DNA from: an uncultured delta proteobacterium
Lineage (GTDB): Bacteria > Myxococcota_A > Polyangia > Polyangiales > Polyangiaceae
NCBI GenBank assembly: GCA_963782055.1
Contig: CAWAIF010000003.1
Location: 4,768,001-4,832,000 of the forward strand
DNA: 64,000 nucleotides
Direction of reading: 5' to 3'
Shown: positions 1,294 through 9,674 of the stretch, piece by piece
Layout: each line of letters opens with the position of its first letter
How positions within the stretch are numbered: the stretch's first letter is position 1
Made by a program: the position numbers and the translations under genes
Notes under the pieces: model-generated
Databases searched by the model: none
What the model was told of the DNA's origin: nothing
What the model saw: the letters and a program-made list of their open reading frames with translations, nothing else

Positions 1294-3261
1294 CTAGCGG
1301 ATCTCGAGCAGGTGGGCGGCGAGGAGCATGTCCAGCGCCCGGAGGACGGAGCCGGCGGTGGTCTGGCCGCCGCGCGTCGCCTCGCTGAGCAGCTCGCTCA
1401 GGCGCTTGGGTCTGCGCGAGAGCGCCTCCACCGCGGCGACCTGGGGCGGCCACCGCACCTGCAGCAGGCCCGGACGGTCCCGGCGGCCGGGGCCCACCAC
1501 CGCGTGAAGGCGCGTGCGGTAGCGCTCCAGCGCGCTCTCGCCGGGGACGGCCGCCTCCATCCCGGCGAGCATGAGGGTGGGCAGGTCCAGGTCCAGCGGG
1601 AACTCGACGTGGAGCGCGGTCTGGTTGCGGTAGAAGCTCGCCTGCCCCTGCGTCCACATGAACAGGTCCGCCACGCGATCGCGGCCCTGCTCGCGGATCG
1701 CCTGGAAGACGTCGACCGGGCTCACCAGGCCGAGGGAGATGAGGGTGTCGCCCATCCGGCCGTTGTGACGGGGGAGCACCGCGAGCGCCATGTCCAGCTC
1801 GTGGCGGGAGAGCTTGCCGCGCCGGACGAGATACTCGCCGAGCAGCTCGCTCGCGTTGGAGGAGGCGACGTGGTGAAGCCGCCCGCGCACGAAGTAGAGC
1901 TCCTTGCGCGCGTTGCGATCCCCGCGCTCGGCGAAGAGCACGCCGGTGTCGTCCTTCTCCAGGACGCAGAGCAGGACCTCCAGCATGGAGAAGTGGGAGA
2001 GGTCGTAGGTGGCGTCGGGCTTGCCCGGGCCCTCCAGCTTGCTCGTCGCCGGCGTCTGCGCGGGGAGGAAGCGCGCCAGATCCTCCACGTCGGCGACGGA
2101 CGCGTAACCGCGCCCGATGTAGTCGACCTGATCGGCGCGGCCCACCTCGCCGGTGGCCAGCGCCTCCACCAGCCGCGCGAACGTCCACGGGCCGTGCTTG
2201 GTGCCTGCCGTGGTGATGACGAAGGAGGGCAGGGTCGTGTACTCGCCGGTGGGCCGCTCCTCCTGCTCCACCGCCACCGGCGCCGCGGCGCGCATGCGGC
2301 TGCTGCTGTCGCGCACGGCGGCCATGGTGGAGCCGGAGCGCGAGCGCATCGCCTCCCGGACGAGCACCCCGAGCTCGGCGCGGGCGCCCGCGGGGTCGCC
2401 GGCGAAGGGGGCCAGCGCCTCGGCGAAAGCGCGGGCGCGCTCGAAGCGGTCGTCGGGGTTCTTGGAGAGGCCCTTGACCAGGGCCTGGTAGAGGCCGGGC
2501 GGGAGCTCGCCGGCGCGCGCGTGCAGCGCGTCGATGCGGCAGTCGCGGATGGCGAGGAGCACCGCGAGCTGACCGACGCCGGGGAAGAGCTGCTCGCCCA
2601 GCAACAGCTCGGCGAGGACGGTGGCCATGCTAAAGAGATCGGCGCGGTGATCGAACTCCTCGCCCGCGACCTGCTCCGGCGCCAGATAGGCGAACTTGCC
2701 CTTGAGCATCGCGCTGGCGGCGCGCTGCGCGGTGAGGCGCTCGTTGGCGCGCGCGATGCCGAAGTCGCCCAGCTTCACGTCCCCGTTCTTGGACAGGTAG
2801 ACGTTGGAGGGGGTCACGTCCCGGTGGACGATGTGGAGCGGGGTGCCCGCGGCGTCGGTCGCAGAGTGCACGTAGTCCAGCGCGAGGAGCACCTCCCGCG
2901 CGATGTGCACGGCGACGGGCACGGGGAGGCTCCGCCCGTCCTGCCGGGTGCGGCGGATCAGCCGGTAGCCGTCGACGCCCTCGACCCACTCCATCGCCAG
3001 GTAGGGCTCGCCGTCGTCGGTCTCGCCGGCGGCGAACACCTTCACGACGTTGTCGTGGCGGACGGAGGCGTGGAGCGCCGCCTCGCGGGCGAACATGGTG
3101 CGGCCCTCCTCGTCGCCCAGGAAGTCGGGCAGGAGGCGCTTCACCACGAGCTGCGGCGGCTCGCCGCGCGGGTCGGCGTGCCGCGCGAGGTAGACCTCCG
3201 CCGTTCCCCCGACGGCGAGGCGAGTCTCCAGGACGTAGGGGCCGAAGGTCACCTCTCGCAT
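1294..3261 (-). CDS. Ser/Thr protein kinase with a C-terminal DUF4388-like domain
   Basis: VVKR, HRDVTPSN, DFG and APE motifs; the C-terminal 'ELYFVRGRL...ELLGEYLVRRG...RMGDTLISLG' segment is typical of myxobacterial DUF4388/PilB-N-like domains. Confidence 0.9.
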   Translation of the reverse strand: MREVTFGPYVLETRLAVGGTAEVYLARHADPRGEPPQLVVKRLLPDFLGDEEGRTMFAREAALHASVRHDNVVKVFAAGETDDGEPYLAMEWVEGVDGYRLIRRTRQDGRSLPVPVAVHIAREVLLALDYVHSATDAAGTPLHIVHRDVTPSNVYLSKNGDVKLGDFGIARANERLTAQRAASAMLKGKFAYLAPEQVAGEEFDHRADLFSMATVLAELLLGEQLFPGVGQLAVLLAIRDCRIDALHARAGELPPGLYQALVKGLSKNPDDRFERARAFAEALAPFAGDPAGARAELGVLVREAMRSRSGSTMAAVRDSSSRMRAAAPVAVEQEERPTGEYTTLPSFVITTAGTKHGPWTFARLVEALATGEVGRADQVDYIGRGYASVADVEDLARFLPAQTPATSKLEGPGKPDATYDLSHFSMLEVLLCVLEKDDTGVLFAERGDRNARKELYFVRGRLHHVASSNASELLGEYLVRRGKLSRHELDMALAVLPRHNGRMGDTLISLGLVSPVDVFQAIREQGRDRVADLFMWTQGQASFYRNQTALHVEFPLDLDLPTLMLAGMEAAVPGESALERYRTRLHAVVGPGRRDRPGLLQVRWPPQVAAVEALSRRPKRLSELLSEATRGGQTTAGSVLRALDMLLAAHLLEIR

Positions 3262-3331
3262 GGCACGCCGTATCTTCGCCGCCGCGGGGCGCTTTCTCCT
3301 TCCCTGTCCATTGAGTATCTATACGACGACC

Positions 3332-4993
3332 ATGATCGAGCATCGGCGGGCGCGCTGCAAATGGCAACCGAGATTGACGGCTCGAGCGTCGGCGCTCGCG
3401 CTCTTCTGCACCATCGCCGGGGCCGCGGCCTCGGCCTGCGAGGGCTGCCACCCCCAGAGAGGGGCCCAGCCGGACGCGGCGGACGCGCCGACGGTGCGGC
3501 TTTACCTCGTCTCCGACCCGGCCGGCGCGCTCGAGCCGTGCGGGTGCGTCAAGGACCAGCTCGGGGGCCTGAACCACGTGGCGGCGTGGATGAAGGGGGA
3601 GCGAAAGCGCGCGCCCGACAGCCTCTTCGTCTCCGCCGGGCCGCTCTTCTTCATCGACCCGGTCATCGAGCCGCCGAAGAAGGCGCAGGAGCTCGCCAAG
3701 GCCGAGACGCTCGCCGCCTCCCTGAAGGACCTGGGCCTCGTGTCCTTCTCCCCCGGGCGCAACGACTGGGCGCTCGGGCAGGACACCTTCGCCCGGCTGG
3801 CGGGGGAGAGCGGCGCCGCCGCGCTCGCGGCGAACGCCACCCCCGCGAGCGGCGTCTTCCACGCCTCGGTGCTGCGCGAGGTGCACGGCGTGAAGGTGGG
3901 CATCGTCGGGGTGGCCCAGCCGGACAAGGCGACCGAGGGGATGCCCACCGACGGCTTCACCTTCGCGGCGCCGGAGGAGGCGGCCAAGGCAGAGGCGGCG
4001 AAGCTGAAGGCGCAGGGCGCGCAGGTGCTGGTGGCGCTCGCCGCCGTGGGCCGCGGGGAGGCCAAGCGCATCGCCGACGCCGTGCCGGACTTCACCGTCG
4101 TGGTGGTCGGGTCGACGGGCGGCGGCGGGGAGGAGAACACGCCCACCCCCTCCCCCGAGCTGGACGGCAAGGTGATCGTCGCCCAGACGGGCAACCACCT
4201 GCAGACCGTCGGCGTGCTGGACCTCTTCGTGCGCGACGGCTCCTTCGACTTCCACGACGCCACCGGCCTCGGCCGCGGCCAGAAGCGCGATGACCTCACG
4301 CGACGCATCGACGAGCTGCGCGGCAAGATCGCCGACTGGGAGAAGTCGGGGAAGGTGGACCCGAAGGACCTCGCCGCCCGAAAGGCGGACCTGGCCCGGC
4401 TGGAGTCGCAGAAGAAGGCGCTGGACGAGGCGCCGGCGCCCAAGGCGGGGAGCTTCTTCCGCTACACCAGCACCGAGGTGCGCGACTCGCTGGGGAGCGA
4501 CGACGCCATCCAGAAGCAGCTACTTGCATACTACAAGAAGGTGGACGACATGAACCGCGTCGCCTTCGCCGGGTTGAAGCCGCCGCCCGCGCCGCCCGGC
4601 GGCGACTCCTACGCCGGCGTGGAGGCGTGCAGCACGTGCCACGCGGCGCCGCGGGCGGTGTGGGACAAGACCGCGCACGCCCACGCGTACGTGACGCTGT
4701 CGTCGCAGTTCAAGGAGTTCAACCTGGACTGCGTGAGCTGCCACGTCACCGGCTACGACCGCCCCGGCGGGAGCACGGTGACGCACGTGGAGAAGCTGAA
4801 GGACGTGCAGTGCGAGGTGTGCCACGGGCCCTCGTCGCGGCACGCGGAGAACCCGAAGATCCCGCCGGAGGTGCCGAAGCCGACAGCGCAGATCTGCACC
4901 ACTTGCCACCACCCGCCGCACGTCCACACCTTCGACGCGCAGGCGAAGCTGCAGGAGATCCTCGGCCCCGGGCACGGCAAGCCGCTGCACTGA
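3332..4993 (+). CDS. Exported UshA/5'-nucleotidase-like domain fused to a multiheme cytochrome c (c554-like)
   Basis: Signal peptide; GALEPCGC..LGGL motif; coiled coil; C-terminal CSTCH, CVSCH, CEVCH and CTTCH, plus CEGCH at the N-terminus. Start moved to ATG 3332 because 3260 overlaps the divergent kinase start. Confidence 0.8.
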   Translation: MIEHRRARCKWQPRLTARASALALFCTIAGAAASACEGCHPQRGAQPDAADAPTVRLYLVSDPAGALEPCGCVKDQLGGLNHVAAWMKGERKRAPDSLFVSAGPLFFIDPVIEPPKKAQELAKAETLAASLKDLGLVSFSPGRNDWALGQDTFARLAGESGAAALAANATPASGVFHASVLREVHGVKVGIVGVAQPDKATEGMPTDGFTFAAPEEAAKAEAAKLKAQGAQVLVALAAVGRGEAKRIADAVPDFTVVVVGSTGGGGEENTPTPSPELDGKVIVAQTGNHLQTVGVLDLFVRDGSFDFHDATGLGRGQKRDDLTRRIDELRGKIADWEKSGKVDPKDLAARKADLARLESQKKALDEAPAPKAGSFFRYTSTEVRDSLGSDDAIQKQLLAYYKKVDDMNRVAFAGLKPPPAPPGGDSYAGVEACSTCHAAPRAVWDKTAHAHAYVTLSSQFKEFNLDCVSCHVTGYDRPGGSTVTHVEKLKDVQCEVCHGPSSRHAENPKIPPEVPKPTAQICTTCHHPPHVHTFDAQAKLQEILGPGHGKPLH

Positions 4994-4999
4994 GAGGCG

Positions 5000-6193
5000 C
5001 TACAGGCCCGCGACGTGGTTCTTGAAGGTCGTGCCGTAGGGCGTCGTCGCGGTCCCGGAGTAGTTCTGGATGAGGTCGAGGCAGTCGCCCCAGGTGTCCC
5101 ACGTCCAGGCGAGGTAGCTCTGCTTCTTGCCGTCGAGCCAGTTCATCAGCGTCGTGATGAAGCCGCCCCCGCAGTCCTGCTCGCCGATCTCGGTCGCGAC
5201 GACGGGGTACTTCTTGGCCACCGCGCCGGCGGTGGCGTCGTAGCAGCTGGTGTCGCTGCAGAGGTTGAAGTCGTAGACGTGCCACGCCGCGGCGAGGTTG
5301 TTCGCCGGGTCGGCGGGCACGTGCGTCAGCCACTGCGAGAGCGCGTTGGAGTACTCCACGCCGCCGAGCAGGACGAGGTTGTTCGCGCCCGCCGCGCGGA
5401 CGGCGGAGACGAGGGTGCTCATCCCCGCCACGGTGTAGTTGATGCCGCTGCAGGAGCCGCCCTTCTCCCAGCACGTCCAGGCGGCGTTGGTGTCCTGGTT
5501 GTTGTCCGGGTACGGCTCGTTGTGCATCTCCAGCACCACATCGGGCCGGCTGGCGAAGGCGGCGGCCACCTGCGACCAGAAGGTGACCGAGTGATCCATG
5601 TCGGGCATCGGCCGCTGCCCGGTCGCGGGCGTCGAGCCGGGCGCCGTCCAGTGCAGCTCGAGGATGGGGTACATGCCGTGCGCCAGGATGCGATCGGCGA
5701 AGTCGGAGAGGGCCTTCTGGTAGTTGGCGCCCGCGTACTGCGACGGCACGCCGTTGATGCCGAGCCAGCAGTCCTCGTTCATGGGGACGCGCACCGCGTT
5801 GACGTTCTTCCAGCTCGCGATGGCGGCGAGGGAGGCGTCGTCGGATGGGCCGTCGAAGATGCCGAAGCCCTGGATGCACGCGTACTCGGTGCCGGAGCGG
5901 TTCACGCCGTGGAGCTGCACGGTGTTGCCCTTGCCGTCGACGAGCAGGTTGCCGACGGCGTGGAGGTAGTGCACCCCGGCGTCGCCCGACGGCGAGGCGT
6001 CGGCGTCGCCCGACGGCGAGGCGTCGCCCGTCGCGTCGGCGCCGACCGCGGCGTCCAGCGCAGGCGAGGCGCCCGCGTCGCCCGTGGCGGAGGGGTCGGC
6101 GGCGTCGGGCTCGCTCGAGCTGGAGGTCGTCGAAGGCCCGCACGCGAAGGCGGCGGACGCCATGAGGGCGATGGCCCATCGGAGTTGCTGCAT
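5000..6193 (-). CDS. Glycoside hydrolase family 5 (endoglucanase-like) lipoprotein
   Basis: Lipobox AFAC, acidic DA linker, GVNRSG.EYAC, acid/base motif HNEP, nucleophile region ATEIG, YLAWTW. Confidence 0.9.
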   Translation of the reverse strand: MQQLRWAIALMASAAFACGPSTTSSSSEPDAADPSATGDAGASPALDAAVGADATGDASPSGDADASPSGDAGVHYLHAVGNLLVDGKGNTVQLHGVNRSGTEYACIQGFGIFDGPSDDASLAAIASWKNVNAVRVPMNEDCWLGINGVPSQYAGANYQKALSDFADRILAHGMYPILELHWTAPGSTPATGQRPMPDMDHSVTFWSQVAAAFASRPDVVLEMHNEPYPDNNQDTNAAWTCWEKGGSCSGINYTVAGMSTLVSAVRAAGANNLVLLGGVEYSNALSQWLTHVPADPANNLAAAWHVYDFNLCSDTSCYDATAGAVAKKYPVVATEIGEQDCGGGFITTLMNWLDGKKQSYLAWTWDTWGDCLDLIQNYSGTATTPYGTTFKNHVAGL

Positions 6194-6337
6194 GCCGATG
6201 CTCTAGCAACCGGACTCGCGACTCGGCTCGTGGCTCATGCGCGATTGCTCGCATCATGTGCGGCACGAGCGTGCGGCGCCGCTCGGGCCGAGCTCTCCCA
6301 AAATTGTCCGTGGCTCAGGCGTGCGCATCGGCCTAGA

Positions 6338-6856
6338 ATGGACGCCATGTCCGGCTCGGCTTCCGACAAATCCGGCGACGCGACCGCCAGCCGCGCGCTG
6401 CTCACCGCCGCGCTCGGCGGCCTCCTGTGCGTCGGGATGCCGGCCTGCAGCGCCACCGACCCGGGCTCCGACACCGTCGCCCCCGGCGGCCGACCGGACG
6501 CCGCGCTGGCGTCCCCTGCCGTGCAACCGGACGCGGGCGTCGGCCTGGACGCCTCCGTCGACCTGGACGCCTCCGCCGCCGATGCCGCCGCCGGGGACGC
6601 GGCGCCCGCGTGCGAGGGTGGCCCGGGCGATGCCGCCCCGATCATCACCTCCTCGACCATCGTCCCCGACCTGACGCTGGAGGACTTCACCGCCGAGTGC
6701 GACAAGCGCGGCGGCACCGTGGAGATCCACCCGCACTGCGGCGGGGAGAACACCTGTCGCGGGATGTCCTACGACACCGGGACGCAGACCCTCACCGAGC
6801 ACACCTGCCGCGGGATGAACGTCTGCGCGGGCTTCAGCTGCGTCATCTGCGACTGA
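6338..6856 (+). CDS. Small Cys-rich lipoprotein; candidate MNIO (bufferin BufA2-like) precursor
   Basis: 3' part of ORF 5015..6856 (start ATG 6338 or 6347); hydrophobic leader ending in MPAC; repeats HCGGENTCRG and HTCRGMNVCAG; its stop is 3 nt from the DUF2063 stop. Confidence 0.7.
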   Translation: MDAMSGSASDKSGDATASRALLTAALGGLLCVGMPACSATDPGSDTVAPGGRPDAALASPAVQPDAGVGLDASVDLDASAADAAAGDAAPACEGGPGDAAPIITSSTIVPDLTLEDFTAECDKRGGTVEIHPHCGGENTCRGMSYDTGTQTLTEHTCRGMNVCAGFSCVICD

Positions 6857-6859
6857 GCC

Positions 6860-7732
6860 TCAGCCGGCCCCGGCCCAGAAGCCCAGCGTCACGCTGCGGG
6901 CGAGCCACGCCTGCGTCTTGACCGGCAGCTCGCCGCGCTCCTCGGCGGGGCACGCCGCCTCCAGCCGGGCGAGGGCGTCGCGCACCGTGTGGCGACCGAG
7001 CAGGTCGAGGAGCTCCGCCTCGCGCGCCTCCAGCGGGAGGTGGCCCAGCCCCTCCGGCCGGCGGACAATCGCCCACCACCGCGCCTCGGGCAGCCGCGCG
7101 GGGAGCGCGACCGGAGCCTCCGTCGCGTCGTCGCGCGCCTGCTTGCGAAGCTCGAGCAGCGGCCAGCTCTCCTTCACCAGCGCCGCTGCCGGAGAGGGAA
7201 CCAGCCGCGCGTCGAGCAGCCGCGGGGCGTCGCTCGCCGAGGGACGGTACGGCAGGATCTCCGGCGCGCCGAGCACGCGCATGAATGCGGCGTCGATGCG
7301 CGCTGCCTCCACGAGCGCCTCCCGAGCGACCAGGCGGTCGCCGGCGGCGACGTGCTCGCCCGGCGTCTCCTCGTCGAGGAAGGTCTCGAAGCCGTCCGCC
7401 GCGCGGCCGACGTCCCACCCGTGCGGGGGGTGAGCGAGCAGGAAGCGCGAAGCGTGATCGTTGAAGGTCCAGTGACCGAGCAGCCGCGTGGTGAGCGGGA
7501 AGGCGGTCTGCAGCACGCCGAAGAGGCGAAACCAGTACTGCCGGTTGTAGACGGCGAGCCGCTCCGCGCCGCTCGTCTTCGGGCCGCCCCGCGCCTGCTC
7601 CACGAGGGCGGCGTCGTAGGCGGCGGGCGTCGCCCTGAGCGTGCCGCTCGCGCGGTCGAGCGGCGTGCGGATGGTCGCGCCGAAGCGCGCCTGCAGGTCG
7701 GCGAGCCAGGCCGGGGCGTCCCGCGAGCTCAC
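6860..7732 (-). CDS. DUF2063-type MNIO partner protein (HvfC/BufC-like)
   Basis: RLAVYNRQYWFRL...FPLTTRLLG signature; the GTG start overlaps the DUF692 stop (GTGA). Confidence 0.8.
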   Translation of the reverse strand: MSSRDAPAWLADLQARFGATIRTPLDRASGTLRATPAAYDAALVEQARGGPKTSGAERLAVYNRQYWFRLFGVLQTAFPLTTRLLGHWTFNDHASRFLLAHPPHGWDVGRAADGFETFLDEETPGEHVAAGDRLVAREALVEAARIDAAFMRVLGAPEILPYRPSASDAPRLLDARLVPSPAAALVKESWPLLELRKQARDDATEAPVALPARLPEARWWAIVRRPEGLGHLPLEAREAELLDLLGRHTVRDALARLEAACPAEERGELPVKTQAWLARSVTLGFWAGAG

Positions 7733-8565
7733 GCGCGCGCCTCCCGCGCCCGCTCCAGCTCCGCCAGCACCTCCGGCATGGGCGGGATGCGGGCGTCCCA
7801 CTCGAGCAGCGTCGGGAAGGGCCCGCCCATCCGCCACGCGCGCGCGTAGAGCGACCACACCGCGTCGGCCACCGGGTGGTCGTGCGTGTCGACGATGGTG
7901 CCGTCCGGCTCGCGCGCGAACCCCGCCAGGTGGACCTCGAGGACGCGGGAGAAGTCGATCGCCGCGAGGTACGCGTCCGGGTCGAAGCCGTGGTTCTGGC
8001 TGGAGACGTAGACGTTGTTGACGTCGAACAGGAACCAGCAGCCCGACTCGCGCACCACGCGCGTGTAGAAGTCCCACTCGGTGAGCGTGGACCCGGCGAA
8101 GGTCACGTAGCTGGAGAGGTTCTCGATCCCGAAGGGGCGCCCCAGCCGCCGCTGCACGGCGTACGCGCGCTCCGCCGCCCACTCGACGAGCTCGGGTCGG
8201 TAGGGCGTGGGCAGCAGGTCGTGGTGGGAGACGCCGTGCGCGCCGGTCCAGCAGAGGTGATCGGTGACGAAGGGCGCGTCCACCTCGTCGGCGAGCCGGC
8301 AGAGGGCGTCGAGGTAGGCCTCGTCCAGCGGCGCGTGGCCGAGCAGGTTGAGGCCCACGCCGTGGAGCACCACGGGGTAGCGCGCGCGCACGCGGGCGAG
8401 CTTGTGCCGCGGGGGGAGCGCGGCGTCGAGGAAGTTCTCGCTGATGATCTCGAAGTACCCGACCTCCGGCTCGTGCTCGAAGAGGTACGGGTAGTGCGAC
8501 GGCCGCAGCCCCAGCCCGAGGGCCTCGCCGGCGAGGCCGCGGGCCGCCCGGACACGCTCGCTCAC
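7729..8565 (-). CDS. DUF692 multinuclear non-heme iron-dependent oxidase (MbnB/TglH/BufB family)
   Basis: GLGLR..HY, EIISENF, LHGVGL, TDHLCW, IENLSSY, FDVNNVY, HLAG, DTHD and LLEWD motifs. Confidence 0.93.
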   Translation of the reverse strand: MSERVRAARGLAGEALGLGLRPSHYPYLFEHEPEVGYFEIISENFLDAALPPRHKLARVRARYPVVLHGVGLNLLGHAPLDEAYLDALCRLADEVDAPFVTDHLCWTGAHGVSHHDLLPTPYRPELVEWAAERAYAVQRRLGRPFGIENLSSYVTFAGSTLTEWDFYTRVVRESGCWFLFDVNNVYVSSQNHGFDPDAYLAAIDFSRVLEVHLAGFAREPDGTIVDTHDHPVADAVWSLYARAWRMGGPFPTLLEWDARIPPMPEVLAELERAREARA

Positions 8566-8600
8566 GTCGCGCGAGGTGGACACGACGAGGAGGGTAGCAC

Positions 8601-9674
8601 TCAGTAGACGAAGGGCACGATCCGGTGGGGCACGCGCTTCCGGTACTCGTCCCACAGCGCGCCGTACTTCGCCGCGCACCGCCTGTCGTCGTCGCGCTCG
8701 CGGGGCACCAGCAGCGCGAGGTAGTACGCCGGGTACAGCCAAGGCCACGGGTCGCTCGGCCGCGCGAGGGCGAGCGTCAGGCCGAGCGCCATCAGGATCT
8801 CGCCCAGGTAGTTGACGTGGCGGGAGACGCCCCAGAACCCGCCGACGAGCAGCGTGTGCTCGCCGTCGGCGATCGTCCGCGGCGCCAGCAGGCCGAGGAG
8901 CTTCGCCGGCGGGCGCGTCTTGAAGAGGAACTTCTGGAGGTTCGCCCCGCGGGAGAGGGCCCAGCCGCCGAAGAAGACGAGCCCGGCGGCCGCGAGCAGC
9001 CACGCCGGGGCGTGGGGGTCGGGCGCGCGCGCCGCGGACCAGAGCCCCACGCAGTAGAAGAAGGGGTAGAAGGTGAAGCAGCCCCAGCCCAGCTTGAAGC
9101 CCACGCGCTCGGCGAAGAAATCGTAGGTGTACAGGTGCACCTCCTCGAAGAAGAGGTACTCGCTCACGAAGAAGGTGAAGAGCGCGGAGTACACCACGAC
9201 CGAGATCGCCGTGACGCCGCCGTTGACCTTCGCCTCGTGAGCGGCGAAGGAGAGGACGTTGAGCTCCAGCATCACCGCGCCGATGAGGTACAGGTACATC
9301 TTGGCGTCCACCAGCCCGCCGAGCAGCTGCGGGTTGGCGCGCCGGCCGAGGAAGAGCTCCGCCAGGAAGGGCTTGCCGGTGGGCGGCGCGCCGAGCACCA
9401 CGGCGAAGGTGAACGCCAGCCCCAGGGCGCACGCTCCAGCCAGCGCCTCCCACCGGTGATCCCACAGGAAATCGCGGGGCAGGACGCCGAAGTGGTCCAG
9501 GCCGTAGTAGGCGAGCAGGGTGACGGCGAGCACGCGCAGGCCGTTGAGGCGGTAGGTGAGCTTCTCCCCGTTGTCGCCCGTGACGTAGCCGCGCACGGTG
9601 CGCGCGGGCAGCAGCACGTGGAGCACGAGCACCCACGCGTAGACGGCGAGCGGCGCGACGAGCCCGGCGATCAA
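8601..9674 (-). CDS. ERG4/ERG24-family sterol reductase-like membrane protein
   Basis: YRLNG, FLGRRANPQ, YDFFAERVGFKLGWG, ANLQKFLFK, GFWGVSRHVNYLGE and RERDDDRRCAAKYG..W.EY motifs; the TTG start overlaps the SDR stop. Confidence 0.88.
   Translation of the reverse strand: MIAGLVAPLAVYAWVLVLHVLLPARTVRGYVTGDNGEKLTYRLNGLRVLAVTLLAYYGLDHFGVLPRDFLWDHRWEALAGACALGLAFTFAVVLGAPPTGKPFLAELFLGRRANPQLLGGLVDAKMYLYLIGAVMLELNVLSFAAHEAKVNGGVTAISVVVYSALFTFFVSEYLFFEEVHLYTYDFFAERVGFKLGWGCFTFYPFFYCVGLWSAARAPDPHAPAWLLAAAGLVFFGGWALSRGANLQKFLFKTRPPAKLLGLLAPRTIADGEHTLLVGGFWGVSRHVNYLGEILMALGLTLALARPSDPWPWLYPAYYLALLVPRERDDDRRCAAKYGALWDEYRKRVPHRIVPFVY

Follow-up and report, generated by a model that had tools for sequence, protein, structure and literature searches.

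An MNIO (DUF692) gene with no precursor gene upstream on its own strand raises the question of what its product modifies. Within the window, by which we mean the whole stretch of 64,000 nucleotides that was analysed, such a gene is paired with a DUF2063 gene, and the pair converges on a short gene that an earlier note had proposed as the substrate. That gene (6338..6856(+)) translates as claimed and lies hidden within a shadow ORF of 613 aa (5015..6856); third codon positions have a GC fraction of 0.94 within the gene, against 0.60 in the part of the shadow ORF that lies upstream. The translational coupling of the pair was likewise borne out, with the MNIO (7729..8565(-) as first read) and DUF2063 (6860..7732(-)) genes sharing GTGA at 7729-7732, as was the convergence, with precursor and DUF2063 stop codons 3 nt apart. 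The locus holds no alternative candidate precursor. By linkage, reciprocal co-occurrence and homology to BufA2 the convergent gene is the best candidate, and we regard it as very likely to be the substrate of the window MNIO. Features are collected in Table 1, and residues are numbered from 6338.

Table 1. Features of the convergent cassette in the window.
Feature	Coordinates	Strand	Basis or comment
Putative -10 hexamer TAGAAT, 7 nt before ATG 6347	6334..6339	+	Leaderless-type promoter inferred
Precursor gene, 169 aa from the likely start (172 aa from 6338)	6347..6856	+	Predicted lipoprotein with bufferin-related six-Cys domain
Leader motif ASxALLxAALGGLL and lipobox-like MPA-C37	6386..6448	+	Predicted signal peptidase II site; likely helper-recognition site
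Low-complexity A/D/P/G stalk, residues 38-91	6449..6610	+	C37-to-core distance variable
Folded core with six Cys	6635..6850	+	AlphaFold model, Cys conservation, hhalign to BufA2
DUF2063 partner protein (BufC/HvfC-like), translationally coupled to MNIO	6860..7732	-	PF09836, 55.9 bits (cut-off 27.2)
MNIO (DUF692), dedicated clade	7729..8583	-	PF05114, 314.8 bits; likely start GTG 8583
Putative -10 hexamer TACCCT (TG upstream), 7 nt before GTG 8583	8591..8596	-	Pattern shared with homologous MNIO upstream regions

Both genes stand as first read, but their likely starts differ from those given in the earlier note: 6347 instead of 6338 for the precursor and GTG 8583 instead of 8565 for the MNIO, each preceded at a distance of 7 nt by a TAnnnT hexamer. 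The TAnnnT pattern recurs ahead of 37 of 93 homologous precursor starts, compared with 0.9% at random control positions, and ahead of 50 of 67 homologous MNIO starts. We infer that both promoters are leaderless and of housekeeping type, not stress-sigma promoters. A consensus scan for promoters and terminators returned 0 sites, so that no intrinsic terminator was seen at the convergent junction, and this terminator-less tail-to-tail layout may couple the substrate and maturase transcripts by antisense overlap. RNA evidence comprises one run (0.06 share) with two short contigs, neither of which lies on the precursor gene. The lack of DoxX and ECF sigma genes to which the earlier note drew attention was confirmed, with no DoxX or sigma-70 region-4 match within the window; the nearest listed sigma match is some 36 kb distant from the cassette, with 150 of the 183 candidates scored. 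It is not a special feature, however, as such absence is ordinary for Buf2 clusters (PMC12452194, PMC11626156). The cassette is flanked by genes for a GH5 hydrolase and an ERG4/ERG24-family protein; the latter, a sterol reductase-family gene (8601..9620(-)), ends just upstream of the MNIO promoter. Farther away, 3260..4993(+) encodes a UshA-like protein with a C-terminal multiheme domain (NF041198, 256.5 bits against a cut-off of 275).

The case for the convergent gene as substrate rests on its linkage to the MNIO and helper genes across 136 loci retrieved by means of the family alignment (56 from GTDB and 80 from metagenomes, partly redundant). A convergent helper gene accompanies the precursor in 110 of these, 91 with the MNIO as well and 19 with the MNIO off contig; of the rest, 5 loci are arranged otherwise, 11 lack both genes and 10 are uninformative. 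The GTDB subset alone contains 45 full tail-to-tail cassettes, 1 with the MNIO off contig, 2 other arrangements, 5 loci with neither gene and 3 uninformative ones. Precursor and helper stops overlap in 56 of the 110 convergent loci and lie no more than 30 nt apart in 105. The reciprocal search, with the window MNIO at E<=1e-85 (our own cut-off, six candidates scored per genome) in 401 class-level genomes, found the MNIO clade in 17 genomes, every one of which belongs to the 20 that carry the precursor family, and in 16 of the 17 the MNIO lies within 5 kb of the precursor on the same contig. There were 0 cases of the clade without the family, a count in which, as in all these linkage figures, related genomes represent kin, not independent samples. 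Among the three family-bearing genomes without a clade MNIO, one holds a split MNIO match and two a precursor lacking C140. The genomes behind the five GTDB loci with neither gene hold elsewhere MNIO matches at 71%, at 60%, at 63% (a fragment) and, in two, at only 39-45%.

The source genome carries one copy of the precursor family and four MNIOs. Since each of the other three MNIOs has its own upstream, Cys-bearing and lipoprotein-like candidate, no rival precursor is left for the window MNIO. These upstream candidates (L005:1291-1662, L002 ~1091-1348 and L004:2332-2919) sit on a low-complexity stalk; one is BufA2-like and two bear ASCG/ASCSG motifs. Homologues of the precursor thus occur mostly with MNIO genes, as the earlier note expected, and no other precursor in the genome tracks with this MNIO; the conserved linkage, together with the confinement of the MNIO clade to family genomes, makes the precursor very likely the substrate. 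We looked for a fourth conserved gene beside the heme-less cassettes and found none, the next clusters being a RegB-like kinase (11 loci) and a RegA-like regulator (6), and no neighbour there, copper-related or other, was consistently conserved. In one cassette the gap between precursor and helper is about 4 kb and the precursor and MNIO matches are in pieces, possibly reflecting decay or an assembly error.

The precursor belongs to an uncatalogued family, with no Pfam match and a score of 14.3 bits on NCBIfam BufA2 (NF050166), below the cut-off of 60; the best NF050166 score among eight scanned relatives was 53.8 bits. A protein search recovered 75 homologues, and a core-profile search 211 clusters at 50% identity. 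Distribution is patchy (20 of 401 class-level genomes and 8 of 201 phylum genomes), carriers with names are almost all Myxococcota MAGs, and a plasmid search gave no match. Our literature search found no description of the precursor family or of a convergent MNIO cassette, although supplements may list short members; motif and taxon words gave no motif match in two spreadsheet supplements of PMC12452194, one of them covered in part. The precursor family, its MNIO clade and the convergent gene order look new.

Export features were assessed in 66 aligned full-length homologues, chosen by excluding partial, near-duplicate and aberrant rows. These share the leader motif, C37 and the core but differ in their stalks: C37 is invariant (66/66), the residue before it is A, G or S in 65, and the distance from C37 to the core ranges from 7 to 157 aa (median 43.5). 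In 51 of the 66, the n-region is either neutral or acidic, which is atypical of Sec signals. Lgt homologues are present in the source genome. The precursor looks like a lipoprotein, with predicted lipidation at C37 and a variable stalk. Among 215 proteins, 137 have a single C-terminal core, 65 a C-terminal extension with a CxxCH or longer-spaced heme motif, 11 tandem cores and 2 other extensions. The 11 tandem members are lipoprotein-like, with 2-5 copies of the core, and at seven loci two or three tandem precursor genes with differing stalks precede one helper-MNIO pair.

The earlier note had recognized two CxGxNxCxG repeats. The conserved core begins near residue 100 and takes in a further cysteine, C121, which lies on a helix and which the note missed. 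In order, the core comprises a strand, the C121 helix, GG, a strand, the repeats with C134/C140 and C157/C163, and a last strand with C168. The AlphaFold model (pLDDT 77) agrees, with strand, C121 helix, strand, hairpin and a strand bearing C168. Foldseek gave no match to the core at E<=0.001 and VIA-align a best Z of 3.5, absences that are not proof of a new fold; the PDB sequence search gave no match under E 0.12, and ESM Atlas no usable match for the core, with one relative (P0018) returning only unnamed clusters under 0.9. Across 280 non-redundant domains, C134, C163 and C168 are each present in 280, C121 and C157 in 279 and C140 in 267, and 265 retain all six. C140 is lost alone in 13 domains. 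It is absent from 3 of 10 scored unlinked loci as against 2 of 113 linked loci, and the other seven unlinked loci keep all cysteines; three C140-less genomes have no clade MNIO, their best MNIO identity being 39-49%. The five loci in our set with this variant mostly have no dedicated MNIO nearby. Loss of C140 alone, and its greater frequency at loci without the MNIO, are consistent with a modified, non-disulfide cysteine, in cases that are few and related. We had also considered an obligatory C92-C171 disulfide and found it unsupported, as these optional cysteines often occur singly or not at all (both in 46, C92 only in 36, C171 only in 7, neither in 53).

Homology to BufA2, which the earlier note had drawn from the repeats, was recovered by hhalign (94.8%, E 5e-8): residues 131-166 align with BufA2 CysI-CysV, without CysIII. 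The kinship holds at the level of profile homology and does not extend to membership in NF050166. By profile, cysteine spacing and gene order, the precursor is not a BufA2 member. In the AlphaFold model of the core the helix stands ahead of the repeats, whereas in that of BufA2 (strand, strand, helix; low confidence, pLDDT 63) it follows them. The helix-GG block of the family best matches the C-terminal CysVI tail of BufA2 (p=0.034), exceeding the 95th shuffle percentile in 6 of 10 related BufA2 domains, and tandem members repeat a helix-first unit. These observations make a rearrangement likely, for example via a duplicated form with 12 Cys; on this modest evidence the core is probably a rearranged BufA2 in which the Cys-bearing helix moved from the C to the N terminus.

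Bufferin 2 (Caulobacter vibrioides buf2ABC; Buf_6/12Cys; NF050166/NF050167; PMC11626156, PMC12452194) shares with this cassette six conserved Cys, CxGxNxCxG repeats, a BufB-like MNIO, a DUF2063 partner, a predicted export signal and a cluster free of sigma genes, and some of its members are lipoproteins. In contrast, the precursor has an SYD hairpin in place of CysIII, a helix Cys that precedes the repeats and a new Cys in the last strand; its MNIO falls in a separate clade, its genes are tail to tail instead of following the strict bufABC order (PMC12452194), and its family is frequently fused to cytochrome c. Buf2 itself has its outer Cys pair in a disulfide, and it is the four Cys in the middle that carry modifications (PMC11626156). 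Since the alignment pairs C134 with CysI of BufA2, a residue left unmodified in Buf2, the assignment of the modified cysteines stays between two options. Covariation pairs are weak (L114-H133, T118-V128 and E129/P132/H133-F166), as is the C121-C168 contact signal (MI-APC z ~3), but they place C134 near the helix start and C168 near C121 and so favour a C121-C168 staple around four modified cysteines, the arrangement known from Buf2. We accordingly give C121-C168 a slight edge over C121-C134 as the predicted structural disulfide.

The best NCBIfam model for the window MNIO is BufB (NF050167; 308.1 bits against a cut-off of 310), and its scores are far below the cut-offs for ChrH, MbnB and ApyH. 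The DUF2063 protein scores 25.3 bits on NF050145, below the cut-off of 142. In a quick tree, all 83 MNIOs linked to the family group on a single branch (SH-aLRT 99), separate from the 28 that were taken from BufA2-hit loci. Clade support is 99-100 across the quick trees, the stem measures 0.49-0.62 changes per column, and identity to the MNIOs at BufA2-hit loci is 33-49%.

Members of the same MNIO clade also accompany relatives in which the core is fused to a c-type cytochrome. The extended form occurs in 12 of the 20 family-bearing genomes of the class sample, and Pfam cytochrome c was found in 3 of 3 heme-extended members scanned. Of 13 fusion-type loci, 9 place the precursor downstream of the MNIO on its strand, 2 place it upstream and 2 have no MNIO in view; the canonical bufABC order is seen in 2 of 13. 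These loci often include a DUF3570 gene and sometimes adjoining MbnP/MbnH or SCO genes. The context points to copper indirectly: eleven picked neighbours of heme-fused relatives included 2 MbnP, 1 MbnH, 1 SCO1, 1 DUF3570, 1 DUF2271 and 1 DUF1775, the last of which we take to be copper-binding. The MNIOs of heme-less cassettes nest among the fusion MNIOs (quick tree of 47 chosen rows, SH-aLRT 82-86, thus below 95), which suggests that the heme-less form in the window lost its cytochrome. Such a loss would be compatible with a role in copper delivery or redox chemistry. Buf1|Cytochrom_C fusions (PMC12452194) similarly join a bufferin-type domain to a c-type cytochrome, but they are few and carry a DUF2282 (Buf1) domain, whereas the fusions here make up a major branch within another domain family. 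The window protein itself has no cytochrome domain.

The earlier note saw the lipid tether as what sets this protein apart from known bufferins. That distinction does not hold: lipoprotein signals are already on record for about 16% of Buf2 precursors (PMC12452194). Lipidated MNIO RiPPs, too, are established, with lipidated bufferin and oxazolin precursors predicted and NedA confirmed (PMC13056109). The DAG-RiPPs described there, RiPP-lipoprotein hybrids such as DybA and NedA, share with the precursor an MNIO association, a hydrophobic signal, an invariant Cys at the predicted lipobox and a core with cysteines at the C terminus. The precursor differs in having neither the CPACGMG nor the EGKCG motif of PMC13056109, in its predicted folded domain of 70 residues and in its length of 169-172 aa, which exceeds the 50-160 aa mining window of that study; shorter relatives fall inside it.

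Taken together, the cassette encodes an MNIO, its DUF2063 helper and a six-Cys predicted lipoprotein, likely their dedicated substrate, which would probably become a membrane-anchored copper binder of bufferin type; the cassette likely works like a lipidated bufferin 2. Going beyond the genes, their conservation and linkage and the BufA2 homology shown above, and by analogy with bufferin and DAG-RiPP biochemistry, the precursor and the MNIO-helper pair would be transcribed from two inward-facing promoters, and in the cytoplasm the helper would recognize the conserved leader. The MNIO would then oxidize core cysteines to 5-thiooxazoles, the products of the BufB subfamily (10.64898/2025.12.15.693703). 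C134, C140, C157 and C163 of the two CxGxNxC repeats are the most likely modified residues, with a predicted change of -16 Da in all, and C121-C168 would serve as a structural disulfide. Sec export, followed by lipidation at C37 and cleavage, would leave the protein binding copper in the envelope from the tip of a flexible stalk.

A rival reading takes the MNIO-made site as a redox or copper-delivery centre, not a copper sponge: the family would have begun as a lipoprotein-cytochrome c fusion, and the heme-less form would act in trans, supplying copper or electrons to a partner. The heme motif in 65 of 215 proteins, the prevalence of the extended form in the class sample, the nesting of the heme-less MNIOs, the housekeeping look of the promoters and the SCO, MbnP/MbnH and DUF3570 genes beside the fusions all speak for it. 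We nevertheless consider it unlikely for the window protein, which has no heme domain; no conserved redox partner lies beside the heme-less cassettes, the nesting comes from a quick tree with support below 95, and amplification to two or three genes and to 2-5 domains better fits stoichiometric binding. The chances that the precursor is an MNIO substrate with chemistry or metal unlike that of bufferins (another Cys modification; Ag, Hg or another ligand) seem slimmer still. The long stem of the MNIO clade, its distance from the MNIOs at BufA2-hit loci, a Cys spacing unlike BufA2 and the wide chemical diversity of MNIO subfamilies (PMC13056109) would allow this, but the MNIO comes less than 2 bits short of the BufB cut-off while remaining far under those of ChrH, MbnB and ApyH, and the CxGxNxCxG repeats are kept.

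That the precursor is an ordinary disulfide-bonded lipoprotein merely travelling with the MNIO pair is highly improbable. Six Cys could form three disulfides, and 11 of 136 loci have neither MNIO nor helper nearby; against this stand an MNIO clade never seen without the family in 401 genomes, the want of any other candidate at the locus, the single loss of C140 and a core homologous to a known MNIO substrate. The bufferin-type copper binder thus remains our preferred account. A wider proposal, which we hold less likely than not, is that the core represents a third family of bufferin type, a copper module matured by the MNIO, circularly rearranged and equipped with an enzyme clade of its own. 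Since the module occurs alone on a stalk as a lipoprotein, in tandem arrays and joined to cytochrome c, its enzyme-made site would on this view be a protein cofactor for copper delivery or electron transfer and not a stress sponge.

The rearranged Cys pattern, the dedicated MNIO clade, the fact that the convergent order is conserved and the relatives that are tandem or fused to cytochrome c had all escaped the earlier note; the lipid anchor that it stressed adds little, being already published. A very likely substrate family is now assigned to an MNIO clade that looks orphan under the published upstream-gene rule. Mining by Antoine et al. was limited to genes preceding the MNIO (PMC12452194) and would miss such a cassette, so convergent genes are worth mining as well. 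With variants that have or lack heme, have or lack C140, carry single or tandem cores and span stalks of 7-157 residues, the family offers a natural test series for the choice of cysteines by MNIOs and for the redox activity of thiooxazole-copper sites.
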